Notes: generated from the sequence alone by a model not told the origin. Shown: positions 298 to 22,170, counted from the stretch's first letter. The stretch is DNA of 22,170 nt from a virus (IMGVR_UViG_2740892282_000009); one strand, 5' to 3'. Numbers and translations are program-made.

Positions 298-2662
298 TAT
301 TGTCCGTGCCGAATACGTCAAAGAATCCCATCTTAACCTTATATTCACCATCAACGATGTTTGGTACTGAGTCGAATTCAGGTGCATAACTGGTAAACAA
401 TCGGCTGGTATTCCCGTTAACAATACTGATAACAGCACCAGCATAATCACGTTCAGTTGATTGTGTCCATGAAGCAAATAAATTACCAAAACCACCAGTG
501 AATGATACGCCTTGTACTAATCCACATTGTTTGTTTTCTACTGTAATTTTCACTTCCTGTGAATACGTTCCATCATTAAATCCCTGTGCGATAATACCAA
601 TAGTTGGTTTACGTACTTTTAAACGATTCATCGCAAGAGCGAAATTGAAACTATTGCTTTGCGTATAGAAAGTATCTACAAGGGTTGTACCGTTATAGAT
701 TTTAATGATGTAGTACTTGAAGTAATCAGAATACGAGCGACCATTAACGATTAAGTTCTTCTGTGAATCCCATGCAATATTAAAATCAGGTGCATCGGTG
801 ATTAACGCTGATTCAGTACGATTTGCCAGTACTACGCCAGTTACGGAAGGTAAAGCAAAGTTATAAGTCGGTACTATTCCGTTAAGGGTTACACGCTGCG
901 ATACCAAACCAAGATTGTTATACGCCTCTACCCCAAAGTCATAGCTTGCAGTGTCAGACAATCCAAACAGTTCATAAGTGGTTTTCTGTACGCCCGTTTG
1001 CCCCGCATATGTCCATGTACTGGTACTGTGAAGTTTGTAGTAAACATAATAGCCCCGTAGGTACGGATCTTCTGAAACCGTCCAGGTCAAATCAATGATA
1101 GAACCGCTGGTAGTGTTGCCCTTGCGTACTGCCTGTAGATTCGTTGGAGCCTTCACAGTAAGTTCAGGGAAGTTAATCACACCACCCGGCGACCATACGC
1201 CCGGATCTACACCGTCATACATCTGGTCAGGGGCTTCCACGCAGGTTAGCGTTACATAGCCTACGTTCTCTTGATCGGTGGCAATGTCCTTGTTCAGTAC
1301 TTTAAATTTACCTGAGATATTCAATTCGGCATTACTGACATTGATAGCATCCCATACCTTGAGATCCCATCCTTCGGATGTGGTAAAGCTGATAGTACGT
1401 AAAGCATACTTTGCCTTGAGTACATCAACGTTTGCCATCTTAGCGATGACATCAGGATCATATGACCAACTGTAATCACGACTAAGTGCGATTACCTGCC
1501 CGTCTTGCCGAACGGCTTCATCAACGGTTATATCTGAAGGTATGCGTACTACATCCGTGGTGTACATTGATTCAGGGTTAGTGAATTTGCAGTCAACCAC
1601 ATTGAAGTAGTCAGTACCGCCACTGGTTGAAATCTGTACAGCACCAACCATATTAGATTCATTAAATGACGCTACTGAAACTGTTTTACGGTCTGTCGTA
1701 ATACAAATCTGTCCGGCGTGAACATACATAATACCGCCAAATGATTGACAGATATTTTCTATGTTTTCTTTATAGCTTGATTGGTAACTGATAGCACCAT
1801 TGGCGTAGTACTCGAAAGCATCACAATAGGCTGCCGTTTCTTTGAAGATATCAAGATTAATTAATGCGGGATCAATACCCATCCCATACGTCGTATTTGT
1901 TAAGTAATCATAGATAATTGACGGTGGATTACTACTTGCTTTAATACTGCCATCCACTAAATCAAAAATACGTTGCCCTTTCATTTCAACGGTCAAAGCA
2001 AACTGATCATTAACGAGAATGTTATTTTCTAATGATTTCTGTGTTTTCTTGATAACCGTACTGATACTAACAATGCCTTTACCAAGAAATTTATTAGTCC
2101 ATTTTGGCCCTGCATATCCAGTAGCTAACGTTTTAGTACTGGTATAATCACCACCAAAGCGTACTTCTAGTTGTAGAAATTCCTGATACTTTTCCGCAAT
2201 ACTGGCTTTCGGTACTATGCCATCTTGTGTAATCGGTACGGCTAAAACTGGTTCGTTATCGATATAGATCTGTAGAATATTCTTTTCAGTACCCGCATAT
2301 GCTACAGCCTGTTCTGAAAAGAGATATTGAGAATCACTATTCGGTACGTTGTACCATGACACAATTGAACCTGTCAGTACGTATGAACCGCCTGATACCC
2401 CGTTTTTATGTGGCAACTCACCGCCATAGATAACAGGTAATCCCGTAGTTGGGGAAGTACTTCGGCTTAATGAGTCCGACACATCCCCATAACCGCTTAC
2501 GCCGATTTGCCCCAACATTGATGTAGCCACCAGTGAAGCAGCTCCCGCAGCAGCCCCCCAGCCAATCGCGGCTAATGCTGTACCGCCAGTAAAGTACACG
2601 GCTGCCGCGACAATTACCGCAGTTATGATAGCTCCAAAGAAGCCCCCTAAACTCTTACCCAT
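281..2662 (-). CDS. Lambda J-like central tail fibre / host-specificity protein, C-terminally truncated by the IS3 insertion
   Basis: 793-aa ORF with a J-like (phage-tail_3 type) region (...YGMGIDPALINLDIFKETAAYCD...) and a fibronectin-III-like segment (...TWTVSEDPYLRGYYVYYKL...). The N-terminus is Gly/Ala-rich and hydrophobic. The last codons (ILPT) and the stop are read from the IS3 inverted repeat. Start ATG at 2662 lies behind AAGGA. Confidence 0.7.
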   Translation of the reverse strand: MGKSLGGFFGAIITAVIVAAAVYFTGGTALAAIGWGAAAGAASLVATSMLGQIGVSGYGDVSDSLSRSTSPTTGLPVIYGGELPHKNGVSGGSYVLTGSIVSWYNVPNSDSQYLFSEQAVAYAGTEKNILQIYIDNEPVLAVPITQDGIVPKASIAEKYQEFLQLEVRFGGDYTSTKTLATGYAGPKWTNKFLGKGIVSISTVIKKTQKSLENNILVNDQFALTVEMKGQRIFDLVDGSIKASSNPPSIIYDYLTNTTYGMGIDPALINLDIFKETAAYCDAFEYYANGAISYQSSYKENIENICQSFGGIMYVHAGQICITTDRKTVSVASFNESNMVGAVQISTSGGTDYFNVVDCKFTNPESMYTTDVVRIPSDITVDEAVRQDGQVIALSRDYSWSYDPDVIAKMANVDVLKAKYALRTISFTTSEGWDLKVWDAINVSNAELNISGKFKVLNKDIATDQENVGYVTLTCVEAPDQMYDGVDPGVWSPGGVINFPELTVKAPTNLQAVRKGNTTSGSIIDLTWTVSEDPYLRGYYVYYKLHSTSTWTYAGQTGVQKTTYELFGLSDTASYDFGVEAYNNLGLVSQRVTLNGIVPTYNFALPSVTGVVLANRTESALITDAPDFNIAWDSQKNLIVNGRSYSDYFKYYIIKIYNGTTLVDTFYTQSNSFNFALAMNRLKVRKPTIGIIAQGFNDGTYSQEVKITVENKQCGLVQGVSFTGGFGNLFASWTQSTERDYAGAVISIVNGNTSRLFTSYAPEFDSVPNIVDGEYKVKMGFFDVFGTDNMILPT

Positions 2663-3056
2663 TGTGTTTCCTTACTCTATAAAATGTTCCATTCGTTGGT
2701 TTTGGATGAAGTTCAAAGCCATCATGGCTTTCATTCACTCCAAGTACCCGACCTGATACAACCACTGCCATAATTAAAGGGTTATCAGGATCTAGCCATA
2801 TATCACCGTCTATAACGACCTGTACGGGGTTACAGTACTGTTCAACTATCTCCCCTGTATGATTCCATCCTTCAGCCTTTAGACCTGCTATACCTTCCTG
2901 TACGCTTGTATATTCACGATTTGCTAATTGCGTAGTACCATTAATTAAATCGATAATACGTAATACAATAATATTGCAATCGTTATCTCCGAATTGATAC
3001 GGGTTATCAATGGCGTACTGAATGACATTCATAATTTCATTGTGTAGATTTTTCAT
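2655..3056 (-). CDS. Tail-tip associated protein (133 aa); possible gpK-like/NlpC-P60-like peptidase, speculative
   Basis: Sits immediately upstream of the J-like gene and overlaps its start by 8 nt. Contains a Cys (GDNDCNIIV) and downstream His residues; the call rests mainly on position. Confidence 0.35.
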   Translation of the reverse strand: MKNLHNEIMNVIQYAIDNPYQFGDNDCNIIVLRIIDLINGTTQLANREYTSVQEGIAGLKAEGWNHTGEIVEQYCNPVQVVIDGDIWLDPDNPLIMAVVVSGRVLGVNESHDGFELHPKPTNGTFYRVRKHNG

Positions 3057-3679
3057 TATTTGTACTTCCAGTTTTGATTTTGATTAACTTGCCCTAACAG
3101 ACTAAAGTACTCATCACCTTTGTAGTAAGATTGATATACTGAGTTAGCAGCAATTAAGGTCGGCTGTCGGTCTAGCTTTTTATATACACTGTTAACGTAT
3201 ATCGTCATTTCGTTAGTTTTTTGATTTGGGTCTGCTACTGCCTGTACGTAATCAATGAATCCTGAAAACATAAGCATTGAATCGATTACAGTACTGTCAT
3301 ATGGATTCAAGATTACTAATTTGATATTCATCTGAGCATCTTTAAGAAATCCACCTAATGCAAGTGCACGTACTGATTGATTCACATTACTGACTTTGAA
3401 GTTGATAGCATCATTCGTGATGCCCTTTTGTTCTGAATAGGAAGGAAGTGAACCACTGATAATATCGGGGAAACTAATATATTGATAACCATCTAAATTG
3501 ATATCTATAAGTGAGTCTGTCCAGTGAAAACCATTTGTGCCTTTTGGAAGTACATCAAAACAAGTTACCTGTACACCCAAGCTCATTACATCCATTAGTG
3601 TTAATCGTGTTTTCGTCGTACCTTTAACTAACTTCCAGTACTTCAATAGATTGGCATTAGTAAAAACTGCATCATTCAT
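3056..3679 (-). CDS. Tail-tip / baseplate-hub-like structural protein (207 aa)
   Basis: Translationally coupled within the tail-tip gene string; no recognisable motif; assigned by synteny. Confidence 0.35.
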   Translation of the reverse strand: MNDAVFTNANLLKYWKLVKGTTKTRLTLMDVMSLGVQVTCFDVLPKGTNGFHWTDSLIDINLDGYQYISFPDIISGSLPSYSEQKGITNDAINFKVSNVNQSVRALALGGFLKDAQMNIKLVILNPYDSTVIDSMLMFSGFIDYVQAVADPNQKTNEMTIYVNSVYKKLDRQPTLIAANSVYQSYYKGDEYFSLLGQVNQNQNWKYK

Positions 3680-4236
3680 TATGTAATATTCTCCGTTGCC
3701 TTAAATGTCATATTCATTATGTTACCGACTGGCAATGTATAGTCATTATCAGGGTCCAGTACTGCTTCGATCATCAGATTGTTATATTTAATAATCTCGC
3801 TTGCCTGTACTGTATTTTGTAAGACAGGAAAAATAGTAATAGAAGTACTGGTACGTTCTACAATGCGATATATTTTATTGTGGTTAGTAAATTGAATCCA
3901 TTCACCTATCGCTAGAGAATTAGTACTGGTGTTGATTACCCTATTGCCTTTGTTAACAAGTGCAGTACTGGTTAACGATCCCGTTTGTGTGCCTCTGTAG
4001 GTACTCAACAATCCAAGAGAAAAAGTAAAGGGCTTACCCTGTGAGTACTGAGCAAGGAAGTTTTGAACCTCTCCAATACTGGCAGTATTGAAACTTAACT
4101 GAAACTGAATCTCATAGTATTGAATACCTGTACTTCTCATGATACGTTGCCCTGTCCATGTCTGATTTGAATAGACAGGTTCAGTACTTTTAATCTGGAA
4201 GTTTGTTATTTTTATTTGATTTGAAAAAGATGCCAT
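3679..4236 (-). CDS. Distal tail / tail-tip structural protein (185 aa)
   Basis: First gene of the tail-tip string; ATG at 4236 preceded by GAGGT; beta-rich composition; assigned by synteny. Confidence 0.35.
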   Translation of the reverse strand: MASFSNQIKITNFQIKSTEPVYSNQTWTGQRIMRSTGIQYYEIQFQLSFNTASIGEVQNFLAQYSQGKPFTFSLGLLSTYRGTQTGSLTSTALVNKGNRVINTSTNSLAIGEWIQFTNHNKIYRIVERTSTSITIFPVLQNTVQASEIIKYNNLMIEAVLDPDNDYTLPVGNIMNMTFKATENIT

Positions 4237-4271
4237 TGTAACCTCAACAATCCTTGTTTCGAGTATTTATT

Positions 4272-4892
4272 ATGATTGACTTCTTAAACCACATATTGCC
4301 TATATTATCTGCTATTGCATTCCCTATAGTTGTTGTAGTAGTAACTCTTTATATAGTCTACAGAAGCGGAAGTACATCCATCATTGCTAATAAGATATGG
4401 GGGATATTCATTGGTGAGAAAAATTTCTTCAATGAAGAATTAGCATTAAAAGAAAAGGTTGAACATGATGTTGCTAAATTCAACTTTAAAGTAAATCTGA
4501 AAACCAGGAATCTCACTCAAATTGAACAATTTTATAAATTTCTGGAAAAATTCGATCTGGATATAGATAACTTCAAAGGACTTCGTGACTGCTACTTGCC
4601 CTCATTGCAGAAGGTCAAAAAAACATCTAAAAGTGAAATGTTTAATATTGGCCTGGTTGTCTTGTTAATAGGCGGTTTTTTGTTACCTATCTTCATTGGC
4701 GTGTTTATATTTAGAGACATTTCTACTTTCGACGGGGGGAAATTAGCAAATCTATTCTTTTATACGTTTTTAATTTCTGCCAGTACAGTTTTAAGTTTTA
4801 GTCAGTTACTTAGAAAGATTAAGTCAATCAGAACCCGTAAATTGATCTATAAAAAGAAATGCGAATATCTTGCAAACAGAAAGCCCATGTAG
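4272..4892 (+). CDS. Integral membrane protein (about 206 aa), opposite-strand moron inside the tail module
   Basis: The ORF track gives 4254-4892 with a TTG start; the first ATG is at 4272. Hydrophobic N-terminal helix (ILPILSAIAFPIVVVVVTLYIVY) and a second hydrophobic pair (IGLVVLLIGGFLLPIFIGVFIF). Very AT-rich, without the GTAC excess of the neighbours. Confidence 0.55.
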   Translation: MIDFLNHILPILSAIAFPIVVVVVTLYIVYRSGSTSIIANKIWGIFIGEKNFFNEELALKEKVEHDVAKFNFKVNLKTRNLTQIEQFYKFLEKFDLDIDNFKGLRDCYLPSLQKVKKTSKSEMFNIGLVVLLIGGFLLPIFIGVFIFRDISTFDGGKLANLFFYTFLISASTVLSFSQLLRKIKSIRTRKLIYKKKCEYLANRKPM

Positions 4893-4900
4893 GGCTTTCT
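4878..4900. terminator. Hairpin between convergent genes (candidate bidirectional terminator)
   Basis: AGAAAGCCC-atgta-GGGCTTTCT: perfect 9-bp stem with 5-nt loop, overlapping the stop codons of the plus-strand moron (4890-4892) and the minus-strand gene (4900-4902). Confidence 0.5.
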
Positions 4901-6003
4901 TAAGAATTACGTCTCTGGCTGCTTCTTACTGCCTGTGTCACACTGTTGGCGTGCTTCTTCAACATTTCATTGAATTTCTTATCATCACCTGCAACGTCAC
5001 CCTGAATGATTAAGGGAGCGTTAACGGTGATGTCACCAGCAGTACTACCGCCTTTGTCCTGAGTATCGAGGAATTTAGTAAGTTTCTTGTTGGCTTCTGG
5101 CTGTACGACACGCTCACCGGCTTTCAGTACGAATGATTTATTATCATAACTAGATGGTAATTCATCTACGCCGCCGTGGAACTGCCCCGCATCAGCACCT
5201 TTTGCAGTACTGATAATGCTCAATCCAAGAGAGGCTACCTGTGCATAGTTCGCAAGGTTTTGAGGCCACGGCGTAGCAAGTGCCTGTGCAAGTGCGGATT
5301 GAATGCTTAGTACTGTCTGAGCTATCGTGATCCCACGTGAAACCATGAATGCCGCTTCGGCTGCACCAGACGATTCCCCAAATGCGGCCACCATCGCCCC
5401 ACTAAGGTTTTGTGCAGTATCTGAGAAGATTGTGAGTTGTTGCTGTGCATTCTGGTTACTGATATCAATGGCCTGAGCATTGTACTTTGCTGTTATACCA
5501 GTAGTGTTAGCACCTACGCCGTAATCCCCCTGATAGACAGGAAGAGGTGCAGCCATTGTCATTACACGGGCAACTACATCAGCAGGTGTAAATGAATAGG
5601 ATTTAGTAACTACCTGATCCTTATCCCCGGATAATTGAGTACCCGTAACGTAACCATTGACGATGGCATAAGTGATCTGACTTTCTTCTAAATCTAATTG
5701 ATACTGAATAATGACCTGAAATACAGTTTGTGATTCAGCTATTTCATCTAAGAATTGGTGCGTAGGATCATCAGGTAAGTATGCAACCACAATATCAAAT
5801 GGTTCTACTGATTTATCGGATAGTAGTACTGTCTTGTACTCATTATCATAGGTTTCAAAATTATTTGTTTCTGACTGGATGGTTAGAGCAGGAAATTCAG
5901 TTACATTATTAATAGTAACATTGCCTATGCCCTGTGGTGAACGGTTTCCAGTGTCCGTATTATATTGTAAAGTTAATCCCTTACCTGAAAAAATGTCGGC
6001 CAT
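4900..6003 (-). CDS. Tail protein with tape-measure-like Ala/Gly/Gln-rich central region (367 aa)
   Basis: Lies between the small head-tail genes and the tail-tip genes. Central low-complexity helical segment (AQQQLTIFSDTAQNLSGAMVAAFGESSGAAEAAF...) as seen in tape-measure or ejection proteins. The N-terminal 150 aa could be a tube-like domain. Confidence 0.35.
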   Translation of the reverse strand: MADIFSGKGLTLQYNTDTGNRSPQGIGNVTINNVTEFPALTIQSETNNFETYDNEYKTVLLSDKSVEPFDIVVAYLPDDPTHQFLDEIAESQTVFQVIIQYQLDLEESQITYAIVNGYVTGTQLSGDKDQVVTKSYSFTPADVVARVMTMAAPLPVYQGDYGVGANTTGITAKYNAQAIDISNQNAQQQLTIFSDTAQNLSGAMVAAFGESSGAAEAAFMVSRGITIAQTVLSIQSALAQALATPWPQNLANYAQVASLGLSIISTAKGADAGQFHGGVDELPSSYDNKSFVLKAGERVVQPEANKKLTKFLDTQDKGGSTAGDITVNAPLIIQGDVAGDDKKFNEMLKKHANSVTQAVRSSQRRNS

Positions 6004-6020
6004 TTTATATCCTTATAGCG

Positions 6021-6413
6021 TTATCTTGTTTTCTCCGTAACTTGAATATTTATCGTGAATGATAAAGAAACCGAGCCAGTTATAGGGTCTGTTACGATAT
6101 CGGATTGTTCATATGAGTAAGAGAGAATGATTAAATCAGCATCCTTGAAAGCACGTGCTTTCTCATTATCAAAAGTACTGATAATCTGATCATAAGTAAT
6201 TGATGGTGCAGTGTTGCCTGATTCTGGTTTTGGACTAATCAAGTACTGAATAGCAAAGTTACCTGCTTGTCTCTGCCCTCCAAAAGAAATTGAAGACAAT
6301 GAGTAATCAAATGCTATCTGTTCAAATACATCGGCATCACGTGATATTGTTAGATTCTTAGTTGCGTTGATTAGCTGTTTCATTGTCTGGCGTACTTTCT
6401 GTACTAACATCAT
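6021..6413 (-). CDS. Small virion protein (131 aa), candidate tail tube or head-tail joining protein
   Basis: The ORF track extends to 6491, but the start is probably ATG 6413-6411: it directly follows the upstream stop (TAA 6417-6415) and has GAGGA about 9 nt upstream. Beta-rich; assigned by synteny. Confidence 0.4.
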   Translation of the reverse strand: MMLVQKVRQTMKQLINATKNLTISRDADVFEQIAFDYSLSSISFGGQRQAGNFAIQYLISPKPESGNTAPSITYDQIISTFDNEKARAFKDADLIILSYSYEQSDIVTDPITGSVSLSFTINIQVTEKTR

Positions 6414-6414
6414 A

Positions 6415-6738
6415 TTAGTAGTCCTCTGCAAATGAAGCACCAGCAGAAGTACGAAAGTAGCAATTAACCATACCTGACCGATCATCTTCAATATTATAAA
6501 TTGTTTGGTTTACACCATCGATGATCAGTACTGTACCGATAGCTATATCAGCATTAACTAAATCATCCTTTCTCATTGTTACGTATGTTTCTGTACTTTC
6601 GATAAATCCACCTGCCGCTTCAATAGAAACGGGAAGTACTTCTGCAATTCCAGTAAAAGTACTTCCCGTAGAAGTTTGGATTAATTGACCGAAAGCATTT
6701 AGAAACGTATCTTGTTGACCGTTAGAAAATGCTCTCAT
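6415..6738 (-). CDS. Small virion protein (107 aa), candidate head-tail connector/adaptor
   Basis: Immediately downstream of the capsid ORF and tightly packed with neighbours; assigned by synteny. Confidence 0.35.
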   Translation of the reverse strand: MRAFSNGQQDTFLNAFGQLIQTSTGSTFTGIAEVLPVSIEAAGGFIESTETYVTMRKDDLVNADIAIGTVLIIDGVNQTIYNIEDDRSGMVNCYFRTSAGASFAEDY

Positions 6739-6743
6739 AGTTA

Positions 6744-10565
<3,822 letters not shown>

Positions 10566-10568
10566 TTA

Positions 10569-12942
<2,374 letters not shown>

Positions 12943-12956
12943 TTATTGAGATCACT

Positions 12957-13520: not shown

Positions 13521-13699
13521 GTGCGGTGCGGGAAGCTATCTAAACTTCACACATAACTTAAAGAATCCGGTGCCGAAAACTCGCGTTCTAAGCTGGGCTG
13601 CCGGAGTACCTTAATTAGTAATTTAACTTAATTAGCTTGCTTAAAAATACTTACATTCTATTTTACATTAGCATTATTACAATGTTATATTAATAGCAC

Positions 13700-14854
13700 A
13701 TGCACATTGTAGCTCATAAAGGAATGACCAAATTGGTAAAGAATGTATATTTCGATGAATCAGGATTCACTGGTAATAACTTACTTTCAAAAGATCAGCC
13801 TTTTTTTAGTTACGCAGCAGTCGTGACTGATGATGAGGAAAGTAAACAGTTTGTTGATTATATAATAAACAAGTACTCGATCGCAGCCGAAGAGCTAAAA
13901 GGTAGCACTCTCGTAAATAGCAAGAGATTTCAACCAGCCGTAGATGAAATACTTAATCATTTCCGTGGTCGTATGCGTGTGGTTGTAAACGAAAAAAAAT
14001 ATGCCCTCTCAGGAAAATTCTTCGAATATATTTTTGAGCCAGTATTAGCAGCTAAAAGCTCAATTTTTTACAACCTTAAATTTCACCTATTCATCTCAAA
14101 TATAATGTATTTTTCTTTAATAGCTAAGGATGAATATTCAGAACTATTACATTCGCGATTTGAAGATTTTTCACGAGGTAAAATATTGGTTAATAGTTTT
14201 ATCGAACCAGTTGTTGGTTCTAAAAATTCTGAAATTATGATGGACATTCATGATTTCGCCAAGAATAACATCTCTATAATTGAAGAAGAATATGAAGGCC
14301 TTGAGGGTACTGGGATTGATAAGTGGTTATTAGATTTGACAACGACTTCTCTTTATAATCTCCTGTGCGATATGAGTAGTAAGTTTGGTACATTGAGAGC
14401 TATATGCGACAGCTCAAAACCATTAATTACTCATCAGGACTCATTCAATGAGATGATAGGCAATGATGAGATTGTGTTCGAGACTTTTCATGATAAAAAA
14501 ATCCCGATCACATTTAAGCTATCTGAGCCAATGATTCTTTCTGATTCTAAAGTCACGCATGGTATACAAATTGCGGATGTGGTAGCTGCGGCTAGCATTT
14601 ATGTCCTTAACAAGAAAAAATCGAAAGAAAAATATCATTCTAAATGGCTAAATCATTTTGAAGATGAGATTTTTTATTGGCAGTGCTGTGTTGTTCCCAC
14701 ACCAGAAAACCTTGACCCTAAAAATGTTAACAACCATTTAAATAGATATATTTTGCAAGAAATTGCAGAGCGAAGCAGAAACTCAACTCCTGTTTTAGAT
14801 GATATTGAGAAGGATATAATAAGAATTTCCAGAACATTAGCCATGCTACGTTGA
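13700..14854 (+). CDS. DUF3800-like protein (384-aa ORF; probable start at ATG 13724, 376 aa)
   Basis: N-terminal VYFDESGFTG matches the DESG-type signature I associate with DUF3800 (function unknown). AAAGGA immediately precedes ATG 13724. Followed by a strong hairpin terminator. Confidence 0.5.
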   Translation: MHIVAHKGMTKLVKNVYFDESGFTGNNLLSKDQPFFSYAAVVTDDEESKQFVDYIINKYSIAAEELKGSTLVNSKRFQPAVDEILNHFRGRMRVVVNEKKYALSGKFFEYIFEPVLAAKSSIFYNLKFHLFISNIMYFSLIAKDEYSELLHSRFEDFSRGKILVNSFIEPVVGSKNSEIMMDIHDFAKNNISIIEEEYEGLEGTGIDKWLLDLTTTSLYNLLCDMSSKFGTLRAICDSSKPLITHQDSFNEMIGNDEIVFETFHDKKIPITFKLSEPMILSDSKVTHGIQIADVVAAASIYVLNKKKSKEKYHSKWLNHFEDEIFYWQCCVVPTPENLDPKNVNNHLNRYILQEIAERSRNSTPVLDDIEKDIIRISRTLAMLR

Positions 14855-15024: not shown

Positions 15025-15046
15025 CTATCTCTTTGATTTTTGTTTA

Positions 15047-15319
15047 TTATCTATATTGATGCATTTTTTTAATTCTTTCCTCTCGTATATGGCATGTAGT
15101 ACTGCCATTGTCCACCTGATAGATCGGATTGTAGGTGCGGCCACAATCACTCTGGAACTGAGGAAGGTAGTACTTCACCCCGTTACGTGTACCTGTATCA
15201 AACAGTACTATTATAGCTTTGTTATCAACGTTACCGACCAAGGCTTTATCCATGAATGAATGATGTACGCTGCCGCAGCCTGTGAGCAGTACTACCAACA
15301 TGACGATTAGTATTTTCAT
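15047..15319 (-). CDS. Lipoprotein (about 90 aa)
   Basis: The ORF track starts at 15355, but the likely start is ATG 15319 (AGGGA 8-9 nt upstream), giving the signal peptide MKILIVMLVVLLTGC with a lipobox (LTGC). Confidence 0.6.
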   Translation of the reverse strand: MKILIVMLVVLLTGCGSVHHSFMDKALVGNVDNKAIIVLFDTGTRNGVKYYLPQFQSDCGRTYNPIYQVDNGSTTCHIREERIKKMHQYR

Positions 15320-15329
15320 TGTTATATCC

Positions 15330-15839
15330 CTATAGAAGTTGTTCGCATTGTTCAAAGCGGATTGGCCTGTACTCTCCCTGTACTGCCCATATGCCCGACT
15401 CTCGTAAAATCCTGTGATTTCGGTTGCTGCTGACTTGTACGATCACCTTGTCGCAGTACTGCATGATGTTCTTAATGAGTACCGGGAAGATCAACCGCTC
15501 TATGTATTCCTCAGTGAACCGTCTATTTAGTCGAACTAAGTCGTAACCGTCCGTTAGCAGCGGTTCAGCAGCCATGTACCGTATGAATGGTAGATCTTCA
15601 TAGCGTGTACCTGTGCCAGTACTGAGCACGCACAACACCCCCTTTTCTTTGAACCATGCGGCTTTGCCCTGAATCATTCTTAACTGGTTCTGATAGACCA
15701 CGTGACGAATGTATTCACTTTCCTTTCCTGCCCCCATCAGTACCCGGCAACCGTTTATCAGTACACGGGTTTCCAGCTCTACGCCGAGTAACATACCGTC
15801 CAAAGACGTAATAGGAACTGCCCAATGTTCGAGTTTCAT
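15330..15839 (-). CDS. Short EAL-domain-like protein (169 aa), probably degenerate or truncated
   Basis: N-terminal WAVPITSLDGMLLGVELETRV resembles the start of EAL domains (YQPI...G.EALLRW); C-terminal CDKVIVQ...AVQGEYRPIRFEQ resembles the VAEGVE...QGY...P end. About 80 aa shorter than a canonical EAL domain. Region is higher in GC. Confidence 0.4.
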   Translation of the reverse strand: MKLEHWAVPITSLDGMLLGVELETRVLINGCRVLMGAGKESEYIRHVVYQNQLRMIQGKAAWFKEKGVLCVLSTGTGTRYEDLPFIRYMAAEPLLTDGYDLVRLNRRFTEEYIERLIFPVLIKNIMQYCDKVIVQVSSNRNHRILRESGIWAVQGEYRPIRFEQCEQLL

Positions 15840-16020
15840 GTTGATCTCTCAGTTGTCATAACTGATTGATAATTGATCTGCCTTGACTATCAGTTAACTC
15901 ATTATCGATCGGTATAGCCTTTCCTACCATTTTTAGTGGTTAGTGATTTTCACGGCTGGATCTGTGCGAAATGTGATGCAACACTGTATAAATAACCAGT
16001 ATTCATGTGGAGGGCATATC

Positions 16021-16332
16021 ATGGGCAAGAATGGTTTTGATCCGGCAATCAAACACGGGGTTCAGCAGTTTGAGCATTTAGGCCAATGGGCTAAGGTCTG
16101 CTATTGGGGATACAGTCTTGATGAGTTTTCATATGGGGATCGTGTTTTCTTCCAGAACCAGCAAGGTACATACTGGTTAGGCACGATTGAGCGTGATTGC
16201 TTCGTGTTCATACTGGAAACGCCGCTAAGTTCAGTACTGGAAGGCTTGCATTATCTGAGTACTGAGAATGCCGTCTATAAGCAGCATGAAGAAGATGGTT
16301 GGTTCTCTGGGCAGGGAGAATTACCGTTTTGA
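16021..16332 (+). CDS. Hypothetical protein (about 103 aa)
   Basis: The ORF track starts at 15943; ATG 16021 is preceded by GGAGGG. No recognisable motif. Confidence 0.35.
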   Translation: MGKNGFDPAIKHGVQQFEHLGQWAKVCYWGYSLDEFSYGDRVFFQNQQGTYWLGTIERDCFVFILETPLSSVLEGLHYLSTENAVYKQHEEDGWFSGQGELPF

Positions 16333-16432
16333 TAGCACTTCCACCAATCGCCCAAACAAACCTACCCAAATGCGAAAGGTGGAAGTACTACAATTATATC
16401 TTTTTGCATCAAAAATATAACCAAAACTTTGT

Positions 16433-17224
16433 TCATTTATCCCAAAGCGTCATAAGTTTACTCTTAATCTCATCCGTTATTGCTGAGTGATTCGACTTAT
16501 AGATGATTTTTAGTGCTTCAACGTTGTCGCCATTCTTGAATACTCTTCGCATTGAAGATGCCTTTGTTCTTGCAGTACTTTCCTTCCATTCTGGATGGTC
16601 AGTTACCATCTTTTCAACAAGATCAGTTGTGTTCATACCACTTTCAACATACTGATAGTACTCAATAAATGTCTGCATTCCTATTGTCTGTAGATCCCGG
16701 ATAGTGTTTGAATCTGGCTTCACCGTGATCTCTTCCTTTGAACGTTCAGTGTCTGGATCAATAAATTCAATGATGTCTGTTACACGTGGATCGTTAAGTA
16801 ATAAATTGCTGATTCTTAAAGTGTAACCATTCTGGTGCTCATTATAAAAACCATATTCCTTCACTAATTCATGTGGTATGGATACAGCATAACGAATTGA
16901 GAAATCATGGTTATATATTACGGCAATGAGCTCATCGAATTGGTTCAGATCATAATTTCTGATAATCCCAAGAATTAATGATTTGTTTTTTAAATTATTC
17001 TTACGAGACTTAATCTGAATTTTTCGATCATCAATCGTTGTAGCGTCATACCCTTTAGTACTAGGTGCAGCCAGTACCATTTGCATCTTATCCGCAACCA
17101 GCCATTCAGTGTACTCACTGATAGGATTGTTTCTGGTTCTGATAACCTCTCGTCGTTCTAACTCATCAAGCGTCAACTGATTCAGTTGCATCAATTCGAC
17201 GTTACTCAATTGTGATAAATCCAT
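16433..17224 (-). CDS. Hypothetical protein (263 aa), translationally coupled partner of the HNH nuclease
   Basis: Its ATG (17224-17222) abuts the stop of the upstream gene (TAA 17227-17225). Possible degenerate nuclease-like segment (GYDATTIDDRKIQIKSRK); otherwise unrecognised. Confidence 0.4.
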   Translation of the reverse strand: MDLSQLSNVELMQLNQLTLDELERREVIRTRNNPISEYTEWLVADKMQMVLAAPSTKGYDATTIDDRKIQIKSRKNNLKNKSLILGIIRNYDLNQFDELIAVIYNHDFSIRYAVSIPHELVKEYGFYNEHQNGYTLRISNLLLNDPRVTDIIEFIDPDTERSKEEITVKPDSNTIRDLQTIGMQTFIEYYQYVESGMNTTDLVEKMVTDHPEWKESTARTKASSMRRVFKNGDNVEALKIIYKSNHSAITDEIKSKLMTLWDK

Positions 17225-17953
17225 TTACTCGCTCCAAAAGGTCATTTTCTCTTTCAAGTCTGCAATTGAAAGTACTTTGCTCCCACGATGTACCATTGCA
17301 TGGCAATTTGGACATAATGGGACCATATCTGTTACGGGGTTGACCACATAGTTTTCCCCAATCGTATGAAGCGGCTTGATGTGATGTACATGAATGAATC
17401 CACGGCCATGTGTACCATAGACCTTCTCAAAATCGAAACCACAGCATTTACAGGTAGTACCGTGATGTTGGATGCAGGCTTGTCTGGCCTTTGGATCGCG
17501 TTCGTAGTAGTTCACTGTTACTTGAGTCTTTGCACCTTCAACAAAACTCTCTCCTGAAGGAATTTCATCAGGGAATGGATTAGGTAAGAAGTCTGCATAC
17601 CAAACAACGCCTTCTTTACGCAGATATCGCTTGTTTAATTTACGCTCAAAATCCTTGATAACTGCAATTTCAGGGTTATCCGGGTGTTCTGCGAAAACCA
17701 TATTGAAGGTGTAAAGTTCGTAGCCTTCATGGACTAACCTGACGTGTTCCAGTGCCTGGGTGTATCCCAGTTGTTTTTTGTTGTTTGAGTTGTACTCCCA
17801 ACGCTCTCGAAGAATGACTGACCGCTCTTGTTCACTCTCAACATCCCATGACCCAAAGATGACCATCTTCTTTTCATGGTTAACAAATGACCAACTCCAC
17901 GTCCAGTTACTGCAAGTAGCTCCGTGCGACTGGATGAATTGCTTCCGGTTCAT
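17225..17953 (-). CDS. McrA-like HNH nuclease with an unassigned N-terminal domain (242 aa)
   Basis: C-terminal HNH signature YERDPKARQACIQHHGTTCKCCGFDF...GFIHVHHIKPL...MVPLCPNCHAMVH, compared with E. coli McrA from memory. The Trp-rich N-terminal 150 aa (SNWTWSWSFVNHEKKMVIFGSWD...) may be a modified-base reader (EVE/SRA-like); this is a guess. Confidence 0.65.
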   Translation of the reverse strand: MNRKQFIQSHGATCSNWTWSWSFVNHEKKMVIFGSWDVESEQERSVILRERWEYNSNNKKQLGYTQALEHVRLVHEGYELYTFNMVFAEHPDNPEIAVIKDFERKLNKRYLRKEGVVWYADFLPNPFPDEIPSGESFVEGAKTQVTVNYYERDPKARQACIQHHGTTCKCCGFDFEKVYGTHGRGFIHVHHIKPLHTIGENYVVNPVTDMVPLCPNCHAMVHRGSKVLSIADLKEKMTFWSE

Positions 17954-18156
17954 TTCTAATCCTTTGTTGTATGATGCTGATATGTAATGTCTTATGTTAT
18001 CGGGATCTCAGGAGAGAGAGCAATTTTTTCATATAATTTGTGATCATTATCAACACCATAATTATAACTAACCTTAAGTTAAATTTAAGTAGCACTGATG
18101 GGTACAGAAAATTAATATTTACGATTCACTTTCCCAAATGTTAACATCCATCATTA
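17954..18156. promoter_or_regulatory. AT-rich divergent intergenic region (likely promoters for the HNH operon and the membrane-protein gene)
   Basis: 203-bp AT-rich spacer between divergently oriented genes; no -10/-35 pair confidently assigned. Confidence 0.3.
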
Positions 18157-18849
18157 TTGGTTGAGTTTCGAGTACTTCATGTGAATATTAAAATAACAAA
18201 TAGAATACTTGCATCCACAGTTATCGTACTTCTATGGGTAGCAATATTGGTGTTGGTTAAAGTACTTTTTCATGGAGGTAGCCAATTGGAATGGGGATCT
18301 ATTAGTGATTGGGTTAGTTCTATCGCCAATCTAATTATGGCAGGGGCAGCCCTATATGCAGCATGGAACGCTAAAAATTGGTTTCAAACTAAAATAAAGG
18401 AAAATGCATTAAATCAAGTTACTAAGTTCTGGACTAATTGCGATCTTTTTTCGTTAGAAATGTTAAAAACATATGAAAATGTACGCAGTCTCAACAATAC
18501 AGATCCTGATTTTGAGCCAAAAGACTTCGCTTACTTAGTGAGGACAGAAAAAGAAGTTATCGATCAACTACAAATAAAGCTAACTTCATTAAAAAATGAG
18601 TTGCAATCGCTTACTTTTTGGAAGGTATCACCAAAGGATGCAACCATTTTTAAAAATTATTTTTTCAGCAATCAAATGGCTCTGAGCACTTTAAAGGAAG
18701 CAATAAATTTTGATATAAATGATATATCTGAGCGATATCATTACAACATGAACTATGGAAAAGTATTAGTTGACACTTTTAAAGGTTTAATTAACACGCA
18801 TGAAACACTTAAAAAGGACATGAATAATCTTTTCCATTTCTCTAATTAG
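18157..18849 (+). CDS. Membrane protein with hydrophobic N-terminal segments and a soluble, coiled-coil-like C-terminal domain
   Basis: The ORF begins with TTG at 18157 and has no ATG before the second hydrophobic segment, so the start is uncertain (GTG 18178 possible). Hydrophobic segments ILASTVIVLLWVAILVLVKVLF and VSSIANLIMAGAALYAAW. AT-rich. Confidence 0.4.
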   Translation: MVEFRVLHVNIKITNRILASTVIVLLWVAILVLVKVLFHGGSQLEWGSISDWVSSIANLIMAGAALYAAWNAKNWFQTKIKENALNQVTKFWTNCDLFSLEMLKTYENVRSLNNTDPDFEPKDFAYLVRTEKEVIDQLQIKLTSLKNELQSLTFWKVSPKDATIFKNYFFSNQMALSTLKEAINFDINDISERYHYNMNYGKVLVDTFKGLINTHETLKKDMNNLFHFSN

Positions 18850-18867
18850 AGTTCACATCGTTCAACA

Positions 18868-18890
18868 AGCGGTGGACAATCTTCACCGCT
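18868..18890. terminator. Hairpin downstream of the membrane-protein gene (terminator candidate)
   Basis: AGCGGTG-gacaatctt-CACCGCT: 7-bp stem with 9-nt loop, followed by an A/T-rich tract. Confidence 0.4.
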
Positions 18891-18989
18891 ATAATTAATA
18901 CTTCAATATACGTATTTACAATGGCTTCATTAAAGTACTCATCTTTTGGTTCTCTTATGGTTATGTATTAAAAGTATCTTATCCCATCA

Positions 18990-19869
18990 CTATTTAACAC
19001 TACCATCATTCATAACCCATTTTTTCTTGCCCGACTGAAAATCCTCGACTATAGCTTTAATTTGTTCTGAAAAATCTATAATGGATGTACTAGCTATAGG
19101 TTCTCGATAAACGTAATCACAATGGTATTCTGTAATTTTAAATCGCACCTTACTATCTAAACCCTCGAGCCAACCATCATTGAATTTTTCAAAATATTCA
19201 CCAGGGCCATATTTCAGTTCTTTACTCAAACTGAAAATCCTGTTTGGTATATCATGTATAGTATATTTCACATTGTTTTGAACATCATTGATGAAGACCT
19301 CATTGTTCATCTTTCCTTTAAATATATTTTGGAAATCATCTTCTTTATAGTCGCTCTGAGAGTTAAACCATGCACCATCAACACGCACATTAAAATTTTT
19401 AATTTCTGGTAATGTCCGTGCAATTATATTCATATGAATTGTTTTTAACAATGGCTCACCATCTTCAGTAATCCAATCGGACTCTTGCTGACCACGTATA
19501 ACAAGCAACTGTATATTGTGCTGTTCAGCTTTTATCTTTGCACCACTCTGATATCCTGTCCGTGTAGCATAAATTAGCTTAAGACCTGGGATGTCTGAAG
19601 TTTTACCAATATATGCATCAATTTTTTTCAATAGATACTGGTGTTGAATAATCTTTACACTCTATCACTGATCTATAGATATTACCCCCTAACTCAAATT
19701 CCCAATAGATATCAAATTCCCTTTCAATACCTGAACGATCTTTAATCTTTTTATTCTTCTCAATGTTAATATTATTGAGGCTTGGTATATTCTCAGCTGC
19801 AATAAGTGACCGCTGGATATCCCGTACTAGTTCTTCATATTCCTTGCCTGAATTGTACATATGAATCAA
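18990..19869 (-). pseudogene. Mrr-like (PD-(D/E)xK, restriction-endonuclease-type) nuclease gene split by a frameshift in a 7-nt homopolymer
   Basis: The upstream ORF (19618-19869) carries EFDIYWEF...VIECKDY; the downstream ORF (18990-19631) continues with KLIYATRTGYQSGA, matching the Mrr catalytic-domain pattern as I recall it. The two frames overlap in the T7 run at 19622-19628 (A7 on the coding strand); the downstream frame has only a TTG start. Removing one nucleotide gives a continuous reading frame of about 295 aa. Confidence 0.55.
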
Positions 19870-20541
19870 TATCTCTAAACAGAATGTATTGCTAATAGTA
19901 CTCCAAATGCCTGTAATTGTTCAAGTATCAGATAAGCAACCTTACAGCTTAGATAGAAAGCTAAGACTGCTTCTGTTGTTCAAATTAATATATCTACTTG
20001 CAAGGAACGATTATGTAAATCGTATGCAACAATCTGGGTTCGGTCGATCCACGGTTCGCGGTTGGGACTGCGTGGGCAACTCACTAATAATTTGATCAAT
20101 TACTTTGCCAGTACTTAGAAAGTAATTATGTGAGGCTTTAACAGCCGAACGCCCCGACAAGGGAGTTTACGACCACGTAGTTACTCACGAATACTTACCA
20201 AATCACTTTGAGTTCTTCTTTTGTCAGTACTGTTACTTGTCTGAGCGAAAGCGAGTAAATCCCTTAGTTCTTTTCGAGTACTAGCGAGAAAAAACGCAAG
20301 GTTCGGTTTAATTTGTTTTTCAGTGACTATACGACCGCAGGGAGTGTAGGCACTCAAAGACCGATTTGGACGTAGTACAAGAGGTCTTAATAATTTCTAA
20401 TTATGGTGTCGAAATTCTGGGCAACCCATATACAGTGTGTTTTAACTCATATTGATACTATATCTAGTGCAAGCAACACTAATCAACCCCATAAAAACCA
20501 CATTTAACCTTAATTACGACATTTGAACCGTTATTAAAACA

Positions 20542-21066
20542 CTACTTAGAATGTCTTAATTCGGGATAAATTGTAGCTATAACCTTTAGTAGGTCTGCCT
20601 TAGTACAGCCACCATCTAAAGCCATACGTAGTTGATATGCTTCTTCACCAGTTAAGTACTGTGCTCCCTCTGGTGTATCACTTCTTACCGGCTTACCACT
20701 ACTTAGAATCGCATTCAGGCCTTCACATATAGCAATCGTGACCATCTTATAATCTCGTACTGAGGAATCGCCGTACTCATTGAGTGTAAAGGCATCAAAG
20801 TACTCGATATTGTTCTTTATCGCTTCATCTGTGATGTATCGAGTCGATGTAACCAGAAGTAGCATATTCTTGTTTGAGAAAGTCTTACGTTTCTTGTTCT
20901 TTTCAAAGTAACTTTTAACAGAGTTTGATATTACTCTACGTGCTTCATCTGTAAGTTGATTGAGATGGCGTACTCCCCTTAGATGATCTTGTAATTCTGC
21001 ATTATCGTGTTTTTTTGGTTTTCGTCCACGTTTCTTTATTTCATGCGGCTCTTTCTTTTTTGTCAT
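20542..21066 (-). CDS. Hypothetical protein with basic N-terminus (174 aa)
   Basis: Lys/Arg-rich N-terminus (MTKKKEPHEIKKRGRKPKK) suggests nucleic-acid binding. Directly downstream of the HNH homing-endonuclease-like gene; backbone composition (GTAC-rich). Confidence 0.4.
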   Translation of the reverse strand: MTKKKEPHEIKKRGRKPKKHDNAELQDHLRGVRHLNQLTDEARRVISNSVKSYFEKNKKRKTFSNKNMLLLVTSTRYITDEAIKNNIEYFDAFTLNEYGDSSVRDYKMVTIAICEGLNAILSSGKPVRSDTPEGAQYLTGEEAYQLRMALDGGCTKADLLKVIATIYPELRHSK

Positions 21067-21131
21067 AATAAATACCCCTATGATAGATGTTAATATTGGC
21101 CTGTAGTATTTCCAGTACTCAGGCCATTTCG

Positions 21132-21632
21132 TTATTTTGATTTTTGTAATAGTACCGCACTAAGTTTTGGAAATGCTTTATACTGCTGCGATATTTTATA
21201 GATATATGATTTACGCCCAACAACATAAGCAGCATGAGCTTCTTCTATCGTTGGGTATGTCCCAAACTTATGTACTTTCTTATCAAATGTTGCTTGTGCT
21301 TGATAGCCCTTATGATTAACGACAACACCGGTTGATAATGATGTTGGTACTTTACGGAACAATTGATTTACTTCTCTCGGTACAAAGATGCAGTTACTTG
21401 GGCTGTACTCATTACCTCCTAATATGTCTTTATCTAAATGCCAACCATCAACAACATTTTCAACATACCAATAATAAAAATCACTAAACCGATACCAGTC
21501 ATCGCAGATGGTAACAGTACTGTAATTGATGTTATTACGTACTCTTGAGTGAAAATTATTCCATACTCGTAGTGCTTGTTTTACATGTGGTAATTCCTGA
21601 CCCTTTAGGTCATTTCTTTTTTCCTTTTTCAT
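21132..21632 (-). CDS. HNH homing-endonuclease-like protein (HNH_3-type motif plus AP2-like DNA-binding region, 166 aa)
   Basis: WHLDKDILGGNEYSPSNCIFVPREVN fits the H-N-N pattern of phage HNH_3 endonucleases; the C-terminal GYQAQATFDKKVHKFGTYPTIEEAHAAY is AP2-like. ATG at 21632 with AAGGA 7 nt upstream. Confidence 0.6.
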   Translation of the reverse strand: MKKEKRNDLKGQELPHVKQALRVWNNFHSRVRNNINYSTVTICDDWYRFSDFYYWYVENVVDGWHLDKDILGGNEYSPSNCIFVPREVNQLFRKVPTSLSTGVVVNHKGYQAQATFDKKVHKFGTYPTIEEAHAAYVVGRKSYIYKISQQYKAFPKLSAVLLQKSK

Positions 21633-21650
21633 ATTTCATCCTTGAAACTA

Positions 21651-21671
21651 AGTACTTCATCCTGAAGTACT
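21651..21671. promoter_or_regulatory. Perfect inverted repeat AGTACTTCA-tcc-TGAAGTACT (operator or hairpin candidate)
   Basis: 9-bp arms with a 3-bp spacer, about 20 bp upstream of the HNH_3 start and 35 bp downstream of the small upstream ORF. The 3-nt loop is tight for an RNA hairpin, which favours a protein-binding site. Confidence 0.4.
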
Positions 21672-21705
21672 GTTAGTACCTTTCTAAAGTGAAAGTACCA
21701 AACCC

Positions 21706-21858
21706 TTACTTACTATCTAAAATCCCATATTGCTGTATCAGATACTGAATGGCTGAACTCATCGTTGTAGCCTTACCACACACTATAAGTGATTTTAGTA
21801 TTTCTTCTTGTGTAGGACTTAATCTCACCCCAACACTAATAGTTTTCTTTTCTTTCAT
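21706..21858 (-). CDS. Small ORF (50 aa), possible ribbon-helix-helix-type DNA-binding protein
   Basis: Not in the supplied ORF track (below its length cutoff). Hand translation: MKEKKTISVGVRLSPTQEEILKSLIVCGKATTMSSAIQYLIQQYGILDSK; AAGGA 6 nt upstream of the ATG. The pattern (basic N-terminus, VRLSPxxEExL..., ...SSAIQYL) resembles small RHH regulators or antitoxins. Confidence 0.35.
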   Translation of the reverse strand: MKEKKTISVGVRLSPTQEEILKSLIVCGKATTMSSAIQYLIQQYGILDSK

Positions 21859-22170
21859 AACATTCCTTTGTTTAACATTTTCCATTTTTTCTCAACGCAA
21901 AAAGATCCCCATGTTGGGGATTACTTTTTGATGTAGAATTATAATTATCACGTTGAGGTAGTGATCACCATAATATGGATTATACCATGTTATTTTTTAT
22001 CGTTCCAAAAACTTGATAACCATTTTATTTATGGTTGGAATTTTCAAAGGTAGTGCTAATACTGTTAGTAACATAAAAAAGATGCACAGTACTATCCAAC
22101 ATGGAAATAGTACGAACATATAGATTGCCGTAGCAATGATTTCAAAGATTATTTTGTATATCCAATTCAT

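Follow-up and report, generated by a model that had tools for sequence, protein, structure and literature searches.

Background

The closest analogue of the sequence bias described here is found in cyanobacteria, in the highly iterated palindrome (HIP) HIP1, GCGATCGC, and its alternates. In these bacteria HIP1 exceeds expectation 15–300-fold, and its distribution on the chromosomes is periodic, with periods of 10–90 kb (Xu, Lawrence & Durand 2018, PMC5861425). The excess goes beyond codon usage, the sites are conserved between genomes, and they are associated with an orphan methyltransferase (PMC4390886, PMC5861425). Each highly iterated palindrome has in fact been reported together with a cognate methyltransferase (Elhai 2015, PMC4390886). 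Here we analyze a comparable case in a virus, namely the excess of the palindrome GTAC, and of its extended form AGTACT, in a 22,170-nucleotide stretch of viral DNA (IMGVR_UViG_2740892282_000009). This whole stretch is called the window below. Beyond position 297 it is a decayed siphovirus-type prophage, and we compare it with the prophage clade to which it belongs.

Like HIP1, the GTAC of this clade is a short palindrome that occurs far above expectation, both within genes, in all frames, and between them. It goes beyond codon usage and is not explained by coding constraint, it is conserved between related genomes more than control words are, and most GTAC-rich carriers possess an orphan methyltransferase. 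It differs from HIP1 in that it occurs in a phage clade and not in a cellular chromosome, in having an AT-centred core of 4 bp with graded flanks where HIP1 is a fixed GC-rich 8-mer, and in its lower excess (2.8x, about 10x and about 50x for the 4-mer, 6-mer and 8-mer, respectively). Moreover, the excess is unchanged where the methyltransferase is missing, and it coexists with an extreme purging of other palindromes. Elhai (2015) expects a palindrome-specific methyltransferase whenever the palindrome is abundant, whereas GTAC is just as abundant where the enzyme is truncated or absent. For that reason, and because carrier, motif and magnitude differ, we regard GTAC as a variant of the HIP-type phenomenon and not as a member of it. 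We tentatively read it as a recognition mark on the DNA of these phages.

GTAC is over-represented in the backbone of the prophage

Exact counting gave 212 GTAC in the window, where 76.8, 72.1 and 141 were expected under order-0, order-1 and maximal-order Markov models, respectively. GTAC ranked first among the 256 tetramers under all three models. The longer palindromes AGTACT (76 copies, 7.4 expected, about 10x) and CAGTACTG (14 copies, 0.3 expected, about 50x) were in excess as well.

The excess had been noticed in a first-pass annotation based on counting by hand. Its counts were all right within one, and the excess is stronger than it stated. The region 298–3060 contains 39 GTAC against 10.2 expected, an observed-to-expected ratio (O/E) of 3.8, while nine AGTACT are found in 3000–4200 (0.41 expected), ten GTAC in 15361–15840 (1.9 expected) and four in 21641–21700, including an inverted repeat formed by AGTACTTCA (21651–21659) and TGAAGTACT (21663–21671). 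The part of the window that derives from an insertion sequence (IS) of the IS3 family, positions 1–297, has none, as had been reported.

By block, the O/E of GTAC was 4.1, 2.9, 2.6 and 3.3 in the four backbone segments and 1.05, 0.99 and 1.09 in the three cargo blocks, with no copy in the IS fragment. The first-pass annotation had described the cargo genes as devoid of GTAC, which is wrong: they carry it at expectation. Its proposal that the excess can serve as a marker dividing inherited backbone from inserted cargo or IS DNA holds. Two cargo blocks lie on the opposite strand to the backbone; since the third, at 18990–19869, lies on the same strand and is also at expectation, strand does not decide enrichment. 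The window is made up as follows (ORF, open reading frame; RHH, ribbon-helix-helix; aa, amino acids).

1–297, no strand assigned: IS3-family fragment that cuts the tail-fibre gene; 0 GTAC, and the only 2 GCGC of the window.
298–4253, minus strand: backbone segment A, GTAC-rich (58 GTAC against 14.2 expected, O/E 4.1; 16 AGTACT against 1.3); genes for the central tail fibre J (C-terminus cut by the IS), a DUF6950 protein, a tail protein and a distal tail protein.
4254–4892, plus strand (opposite to the backbone): cargo gene, DUF6216; 2 GTAC against 1.9 expected.
4893–12956, minus strand: backbone segment B, GTAC-rich (81 GTAC against 28.4 expected, O/E 2.9; 32 AGTACT against 2.7); genes for a fused major-tail/tape-measure remnant, two small head-tail proteins, a protease-major head fusion, the portal, a head-tail joining protein, a gpA-type large terminase and a Nu1-type small terminase.
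12957–14854, plus strand (opposite to the backbone): cargo genes for a 187-aa protein and a DUF3800 protein; 6 GTAC against 6.1 expected.
15047–18989, no strand assigned: early-region segment C, GTAC-rich (37 GTAC against 14.1 expected, O/E 2.6); genes for small proteins without assigned function, a DUF6998 protein, an HNH endonuclease, and two opposite-strand ORFs with intermediate GTAC enrichment.
15361–15840: densest patch within segment C; 10 GTAC against 1.9 expected.
18990–19869, minus strand: same-strand cargo, one gene in the copy of Escherichia coli AREA_C483 and split in the window; 3 GTAC against 2.7 expected.
19870–22170, minus strand: segment D, GTAC-rich (25 GTAC against 7.6 expected, O/E 3.3); a 174-aa ORF, genes for a 166-aa protein and an RHH protein, a small membrane ORF, and a 670-bp stretch without a called gene.
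21651–21671, no strand assigned: perfect 9-bp inverted repeat AGTACTTCA-tcc-TGAAGTACT, between the RHH gene and the next gene.
21706–21858, minus strand: RHH protein of 50 aa, assigned from its sequence pattern; no Pfam family above cut-off, and no cluster of GTAC in the region upstream of the gene.

The spacing of GTAC is close to Poisson (coefficient of variation 0.8–1.1), with the 3-bp periodicity of coding DNA as its only regularity. The cluster of four GTAC at 21651–21695 is peculiar to the lineage of the window and is not conserved at that position in other lineages.

The excess is not explained by the encoded proteins

Synonymous shuffles, in which the protein sequence and the codon usage of each backbone gene were kept, yielded 98.5±7.3 GTAC where the backbone has 188 (z=12), and 14.6±3.2 AGTACT where it has 66 (z=16). 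Codon shuffles of the same genes gave 78.8 GTAC. When the shuffled sequences were also barred from containing any of the 29 palindromes that are absent from the backbone, 91.6±6.4 GTAC were obtained, so that the excess is not a side effect of palindrome avoidance. The cargo genes display no excess over their synonymous shuffles. The same preference is seen in the spelling of dipeptides. In the backbone, 88 of 117 pairs of Val with L, P, H, Q or R (75%) are written with GTAC, as are 70 of 101 pairs of S, G, R or C with Thr (69%), against 2 of 11 and 6 of 14 in the cargo. These comparisons rule out codon usage and protein sequence as the origin of the excess. An excess that stayed within dinucleotide or codon expectation would have spoken against the first-pass annotation; the excess outlasts both the order-1 model and the synonymous shuffles.

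GTAC is enriched in all reading frames (90, 76 and 32 copies) and, as that annotation had also claimed, outside coding DNA (16 against 6.8 expected). Where the wobble base next to the palindrome is free, its flanks are strongly biased. A stands at position –1 in 58% of cases (background 31%) and T at +1 in 64% (36%); further out, C occupies –2 in 46% (17%) and G occupies +2 in about 41% (16%). The preferred extended form, C-A-GTAC-T-G, is therefore symmetric; its two half-sites behave independently of each other, and CA and TA are the favoured dinucleotides at –2/–1. Symmetric flanks at synonymous sites around a palindromic core point to a two-fold-symmetric reader of duplex DNA. The codon-pair bias suggested in the first-pass annotation is the way in which the excess is written but not its cause, given the symmetry of the free-wobble flanks and the fact that sites are conserved and replaced (see below), both of which point to a constraint on duplex DNA.

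The excess belongs to the element and is shared by its clade

In 97 kb of E. coli chromosomal flanks, O/E was 0.59 for GTAC, 0.25 for AGTACT and 1.76 for GCGC. The excess is thus specific to the element, and a host-wide bias is ruled out by these flanks and by a lambdoid prophage of E. coli ESBLEC_MG48 (MG48 in the following), with a GTAC O/E of 0.55. In three E. coli genomes, the prophage borders mark where the excess of GTAC and a total lack of GCGC start and stop, and inserted IS elements and a group II intron are visible as gaps in the GTAC signature. The density of AGTACT is 3.47 per kb in the element and 0.062 in the host, a 56-fold difference, and GTAC per kb is about four times that of the host, whereas GCGC drops from 6.5 per kb in the E. 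coli flanks to 0. With opposite biases for all three words, element and host are mirror images of each other.

The window represents a hitherto undescribed clade of serine-integrase siphovirus prophages of Enterobacterales, about 33–36 kb in length and with about 37% GC. O/E of GTAC was 1.8–3.2 in 19 loci collected via the capsid protein (72–100% identity), 1.8–3.6 in 28 of 31 loci collected via the methyltransferase, and mostly 1.7–3.4 in 80 loci collected via the endolysin. Members from Pantoea ananatis, Yersinia enterocolitica and Rahnella aquatilis, with a large terminase (TerL) identity of 51–67%, display the same features (GTAC 2.2–2.9x, AGTACT 8–12x, 0–1 GCGC, about 37% GC). According to public protein names, the hosts of the clade include Escherichia, Citrobacter, Enterobacter, Klebsiella, Kluyvera, Buttiauxella, Scandinavium, Salmonella, Yersinia, Pantoea and others.

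No close relative was found among deposited phages, the best identities being 35% for TerL and 29% for the major capsid protein. The nearest deposited record, Escherichia phage DCP80 (L139, PQ671644.1, bases 1–23503), has a GTAC O/E of 1.0. Its block has a different single-word signature that is equally extreme, with GATC at 0 of 85 expected. The record is placed with the T4-like phages (Straboviridae), despite the gpA-type terminase encoded in this block. A literature search for over-representation of GTAC or AGTACT in phages returned nothing relevant.

Sites are conserved and turn over

Conservation was examined in an alignment of 5.7 kb, from terminase to capsid, of nine sequences with 68–81% nucleotide identity to the window. 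Of the GTAC of the window, fractions of 0.64 and 0.63 were retained in the two main frames, compared with 0.455 and 0.462 for all 4-mers. Columns with GTAC were common to 3.48 sequences on average, compared with 1.5–2.9 for 14 control words of the same composition. The number of GTAC per sequence stayed within 47–64 across all nine, and 60 of the 151 site columns were private to one sequence. Judged from this alignment, the sites appear to be under selection, with lost sites being replaced.

No single-substitution neighbour of GTAC is selectively depleted (O/E 0.88 for GTAT/ATAC, 1.11 for GTGC/GCAC and 1.09 for GTTC/GAAC). Together with the near-Poisson spacing, this speaks against phased arrays and against an origin of the sites from a single precursor word. 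A Vsr-like conversion was rejected because no neighbour is depleted. A double deamination of methylated GCGC to GTAC was rejected as well, since the intermediates GTGC and GCAC are not enriched and since it would not yield symmetric flanks.

Other palindromes have been purged

Short palindromes are normally purged from phage genomes. We counted them in a pooled set of 243 kb from eleven diverged members (with the relatives L003, L007, L010, L012, L014, L017–L019, L022 and L024 among them). GCGC was absent from the pooled set (0 of 328 expected), as it is from positions 298–22170 of the window, cargo included (0 of 28 expected). Fourteen GC-rich hexamer palindromes, among them CTGCAG, GTCGAC, GCATGC, GGTACC, CGTACG, CCCGGG and CCGCGG, were also at zero; the sites of PstI, SalI, SphI, KpnI, BsiWI, SmaI, SacII and ApaI are included in this set. 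GGATCC, TCCGGA and CCTAGG each occurred once. We rate this loss of GCGC and of hexamers among the most extreme palindrome purges in a temperate phage. AGTACT, with 741 copies against 81 expected, was the only strongly enriched palindrome.

At GCGC and at many hexamers the clade thus shows textbook restriction-site avoidance (e.g. Rusinov et al. 2018, PMC6286503), whereas GTAC moves the opposite way. Restriction avoidance acts on other palindromes of the same genomes and is not what the GTAC excess reflects. A sub-lineage of three viral contigs collected via the endolysin (L115, L119 and L120) is instructive in this respect. It has only 4–5 AGTACT where about 19 are expected from half-site frequencies, but it keeps AGTACA, AGTACC and AGTACG, and its GTAC O/E is about 3. 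The loss looks like avoidance of a ScaI/Eco255I-type enzyme on top of GTAC enrichment. It indicates that GTAC is the maintained unit, whose number is held when one hexamer turns costly.

Avoidance of some other words is patchy. In the MG48 prophage (L003), CTAG is at 0 per kb over most of the length and at 4–10 per kb in 16001–22000 and 28001–31000, and lineages differ in that CTAG is missing from some and near-normal in others (L012, L014 and L017 against L010, L018, L022 and L024). TGCA, with about 74 copies expected in the Rahnella member L058, is down to one there. This patchiness suggests mosaic recombination among lineages shaped by different host restriction systems.

The excess does not depend on the orphan methyltransferase

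An orphan N6A-type methyltransferase gene is found in relatives of the prophage, outside the window. In most members it is the last gene of the late operon, beside the attachment site, and encodes a protein of 236 aa with S-adenosylmethionine motif I (ELCAGIGRLS) and motif IV (NPPF). The protein had no sequence match in Pfam, NCBIfam or PDB. Its predicted structure (pLDDT 86) fits best to HsdM and M.TaqI, among generic Rossmann and RNA methyltransferases, and homologues are present in Citrobacter, Enterobacter, Klebsiella, Salmonella, Yersinia and Pantoea.

The first-pass annotation had pointed to a cognate methyltransferase as a possible reason for the excess. A candidate thus exists, but it is not supported as the cause. 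In the 8-kb tail-side core, GTAC O/E was 2.92±0.42 with the intact gene (13 loci), 2.98 in the several members that hold only a remnant (4 loci) and 2.79±0.14 without the gene (4 loci). The gene-free lineage consists of MG48, L091, L093 and L137, with core values of 2.6–2.9. Two of its members, so diverged that wobble identity at conserved residues is down to 0.57, have 42 and 43 GTAC in their J genes, of which 22 are common and about 20 are private to each (retention 0.59–0.63 against 0.37–0.38). Conserved sites in a lineage without the enzyme imply that selection on GTAC goes on without it. In view of the equal O/E and the continued retention of sites, we reject methyltransferase dependence as the cause of the excess, and the status of the sites does not hinge on a phage-borne Type II-like methyltransferase. 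We found no literature report of GTAC methylation in these hosts.

What maintains GTAC

As the best explanation, to which we give slightly less than an even chance, we propose that GTAC is a selection-maintained recognition mark on duplex DNA that is read by a two-fold-symmetric factor and sets core phage DNA apart. Selection would keep the motif, preferably as C-A-GTAC-T-G, iterated over the whole clade of low-GC temperate siphoviruses of Enterobacterales, and the vertically inherited core genes would encode it mainly via synonymous codon-pair choice (GTA-Cnn, nGT-ACn). It would act on duplex DNA as a short mark for a protein common to all members or to all hosts, with the outcome that core phage DNA is densely tagged as such (about 4x the host density for GTAC and about 56x for AGTACT). 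Both the protein that reads GTAC and its role in marking or discriminating phage DNA are what we infer. A protein-binding or packaging motif, one of the possibilities raised in the first-pass annotation, is now the leading class of explanation.

Proteins active on DNA that are encoded in every lineage examined are a Nu1-type small terminase (TerS), a gpA-type TerL, the 50-aa RHH protein, a serine recombinase and a SegE-type GIY-YIG nuclease. The RHH protein, conserved throughout, is a candidate DNA binder. The nuclease gene (141–151 aa; Pfam PF19835, 4e-15) lies outside the window, beside the endolysin gene, in every lineage examined, including the one without the methyltransferase (L001 13581–14030, L005 25801–26256 and L002 16953–17378, all on the minus strand).

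Several observations weigh against a recognition mark. No reader was identified, and none of the candidate proteins that we examined could be tied to GTAC. A site of 4–6 bp is short for a specific DNA-binding protein. An operator for the RHH protein was rejected, as no conserved GTAC cluster lies by the RHH gene in four other lineages, and the early and regulatory genes differ between lineages. The small terminase belongs to the lambda Nu1 type, which would go with one cos site and not with dispersed packaging signals. We looked for helical or regular phasing of GTAC and found none. The excess in non-coding DNA is modest, and part of that DNA carries small unannotated ORFs. Finally, a strong sequence-directed repair bias could equally raise site conservation.

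Some known dispersed sites could be set aside. Stoperators of cluster A mycobacteriophages are asymmetric sites of 13–14 bp, mostly intergenic and oriented with transcription, with about 25–35 copies per genome. They are thought to act prophage-wide, and GTAC resembles them in being a short motif with many copies across a temperate phage genome; as a palindrome of 4–8 bp with about 10 sites per kb, mostly inside genes, it is not stoperator-like. The binding consensus of SlmA in E. coli, GTGAGTACTCAC, has the central AGTACT in common with the motif. SlmA sites were rejected, as none of the 76 AGTACT in the window is part of GAGTACTC or a longer SlmA form; C, A or T is favoured at –2, and the required outer bases are disfavoured. 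Being palindromic, with symmetric flanks, the motif is not an oriented signal of the Chi, KOPS or uptake-sequence type, and Chi (GCTGGTGG) is absent from the window. A gyrase motif was dropped as well, since the Topo-seq paper gave no usable core consensus and the GRYC core does not fit GTAC.

Four other explanations have to be weighed against a recognition mark. The orphan methyltransferase that the clade itself encodes might have GTAC or AGTACT as its target and methylate it on progeny DNA, as protection or as an epigenetic mark. This would mirror the link between HIP1 and its enzyme, a cognate methyltransferase accompanying each highly iterated palindrome (Elhai 2015, PMC4390886). A palindrome of 4–6 bp is of typical size for a Type II methyltransferase site, most members possess the 236-aa enzyme with both motifs, its confident model is nearest to HsdM and M.TaqI, and its homologues are spread over six enterobacterial genera. 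We nevertheless consider this improbable, as core O/E is the same with the intact gene, a remnant or no gene, and the diversified gene-free lineage keeps both its counts and its site retention. L119 has purged AGTACT in spite of an intact enzyme, and GGTACC and CGTACG are at 0 where about 31 each are expected, as if the GTAC core were unprotected. Moreover, some homologues match Pfam families of the RNA-methylase type, and distant homologues lie in GTAC-depleted elements. The independence of any variable gene would be easier to understand if selection acted on DNA mechanics, with dense GTAC hinges aiding bending, wrapping, supercoiling or packaging and no specific reader. No other base step is reported to be as deformable as the TA step of GTAC (PMC13284261), the favoured flanks CA and TA add further pyrimidine-purine steps (CA..TA..TG), and dispersed sites with near-Poisson spacing would fit a bulk property. 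To this we assign a small likelihood, because other flexible words are not enriched (TATA 0.59, TTAA 0.81, CATG 0.75, CTAG 0.29, TGCA 0.85), there is no helical phasing, and the excess is missing from other phages of these hosts that have similar capsids; a mechanical need confined to a single clade is hard to explain.

Dcm/Vsr very-short-patch repair raises CCWGG-related words and lowers CTAG in enterics. It resembles the present case as a sequence-specific process that lifts a short near-palindromic word genome-wide, and its imprint is visible in the clade (CCAG/CTGG 1.58, CTAG 0.29). The sites could in the same way have arisen neutrally and without a function, if repair or mutation had a sequence-directed bias that turns near-cognate words into GTAC. 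Such a bias would both create and preserve sites, and a model of this type has been put forward for HIP1 (Elhai 2015, PMC4390886). Its chance of being right appears slim to us. Unlike in the Dcm/Vsr case, no precursor word is depleted, no Vsr-like gene was seen, the magnitude is far larger, and the host chromosome, exposed to the same host enzymes, goes the other way and is GTAC-depleted (0.59). A neutral bias is also at odds with a saturation of about 75% and with the fine tuning by which AGTACT, GGTACC and CGTACG are removed while the GTAC count is held, and for HIP1, selection has been deduced from conservation evidence of the same kind (Xu et al. 2018, PMC5861425). A preference for certain codon pairs in translation, a motif at the RNA level (GUAC) or a signature inherited from a low-GC donor host is very improbable and has been largely refuted. 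Although the sites are mostly in coding DNA, the core genes are nearly all on one strand, and GTA, AGT, ACT and TAC are commoner in backbone than in cargo genes, codon usage alone gives about half of the observed count. The excess extends over all three frames and intergenic DNA, and a signal in RNA or translation needs no symmetry about the palindrome at synonymous positions. The signature is also constant over hosts of three families of Enterobacterales, and E. coli, the one host examined, shows the opposite bias.

State of the prophage and its cargo

A prophage remnant in E. coli AREA_C483, which lies between mipA and yeaG and is bounded by a large serine recombinase, matches half of the window with 99.8% identity. 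No plasmid matched the window. An intact diverged relative of 35.6 kb is located in ybhA of MG48. The MG48-type prophage splits this gene (L005 22192–22404, L003 33035–33652) and carries a pyridoxal phosphatase gene at the junction (L005 22565–23404), which apparently replaces the disrupted ybhA. This junction is the end at which other lineages hold the methyltransferase.

The 367-aa ORF at 4900–6003 (minus strand) matches a major tail protein with residues 1–153 and the C-terminal end of a tape-measure protein with residues 169–366, which indicates that a deletion fused the two genes. A large Peptidase_S74-containing protein and the tail chaperones, present in intact relatives, are missing from the window. 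Along with the IS3 cut in gene J, this makes the prophage defective. In the endolysin gene of a merged metagenomic contig (L017+L029, about 26439–26885, minus strand), two in-frame stops stand where relatives have Tyr and Gln, reflecting either a decaying prophage or sequencing error.

Cargo is inserted at positions common to different members, in the gap between the distal tail and tape-measure genes and in that between the small terminase and the early genes, as seen by comparing 4254–4892, 12957–14854 and 18990–19869 of the window with L003 22811–26828 and the opposite-strand ORFs of c206 (L017+L029). Its content varies by member (DUF6216, DUF3800, an OLD-family ATP-dependent nuclease and others); it is mostly on the opposite strand and without GTAC excess. 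The inserts of the window are AT-rich or lie on the opposite strand. These positions look like hot spots for moron or defence genes.

In segment D, the 166-aa protein matches PHROG families annotated as HNH endonuclease and has no Pfam match. The 670-bp stretch at 19870–20541 contains four GTAC, no ORF of at least 80 aa, and locally GC-rich patches such as ggttcggtcgatccacggttcgcggttgggactgcgtggg at about 20038–20077. It had no Rfam or tRNA match and could be an origin or a non-coding RNA; a search for structured RNAs and tRNAs across the window found none. Upstream of the RHH gene, 21859–22170 (minus strand) holds a hydrophobic ORF of about 57 aa that runs off the end of the window, an extended –10-like element (TGGTATAAT), and a hairpin that resembles a terminator (ATCCCCA-aca-TGGGGAT, with a run of T behind it). 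In the Yersinia, Rahnella, Pantoea and MG48 relatives, a small membrane ORF, a hairpin and the RHH gene are arranged in the same way.

Implications

A more specific version of the recognition mark, which we consider rather unlikely, is that GTAC serves as a genome barcode for self and non-self, with a factor common to all members reading the mirror-image k-mer contrast between element and host. Candidates for this factor are the packaging machinery, a host protein that is conserved, and the late SegE-type GIY-YIG nuclease, which all lineages examined encode. The contrast would guide packaging, silencing, recombination or attack by a nuclease towards the right DNA, with no need for modified bases. 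A GIY-YIG nuclease attacking host DNA would be of particular interest in a phage whose k-mer profile mirrors that of its host. If true, the barcode would stand as an alternative, written in the sequence itself, to the hypermodified bases of T-even phages, and it would give a first functional handle on why highly iterated palindromes exist.

For practical purposes, the GTAC excess combined with the absence of GCGC allows these prophages, and what remains of them, to be recognized sharply and without alignment; it also splits the vertically inherited core from defence and moron cargo at the hot spots. A widespread clade of phages purges nearly all GC-containing palindromes, yet it pushes one palindrome near synonymous saturation, and selection on GTAC appears to persist even in members that lack the one obvious candidate for a cognate enzyme. 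Should GTAC have a reader, these small temperate phages would carry a self-mark that is encoded in the sequence and extends over the genome. The system is tractable, since it consists of 35-kb prophages of E. coli, Citrobacter and Enterobacter in which recoding is simple, and it may illuminate the 30-year-old puzzle of HIP1.

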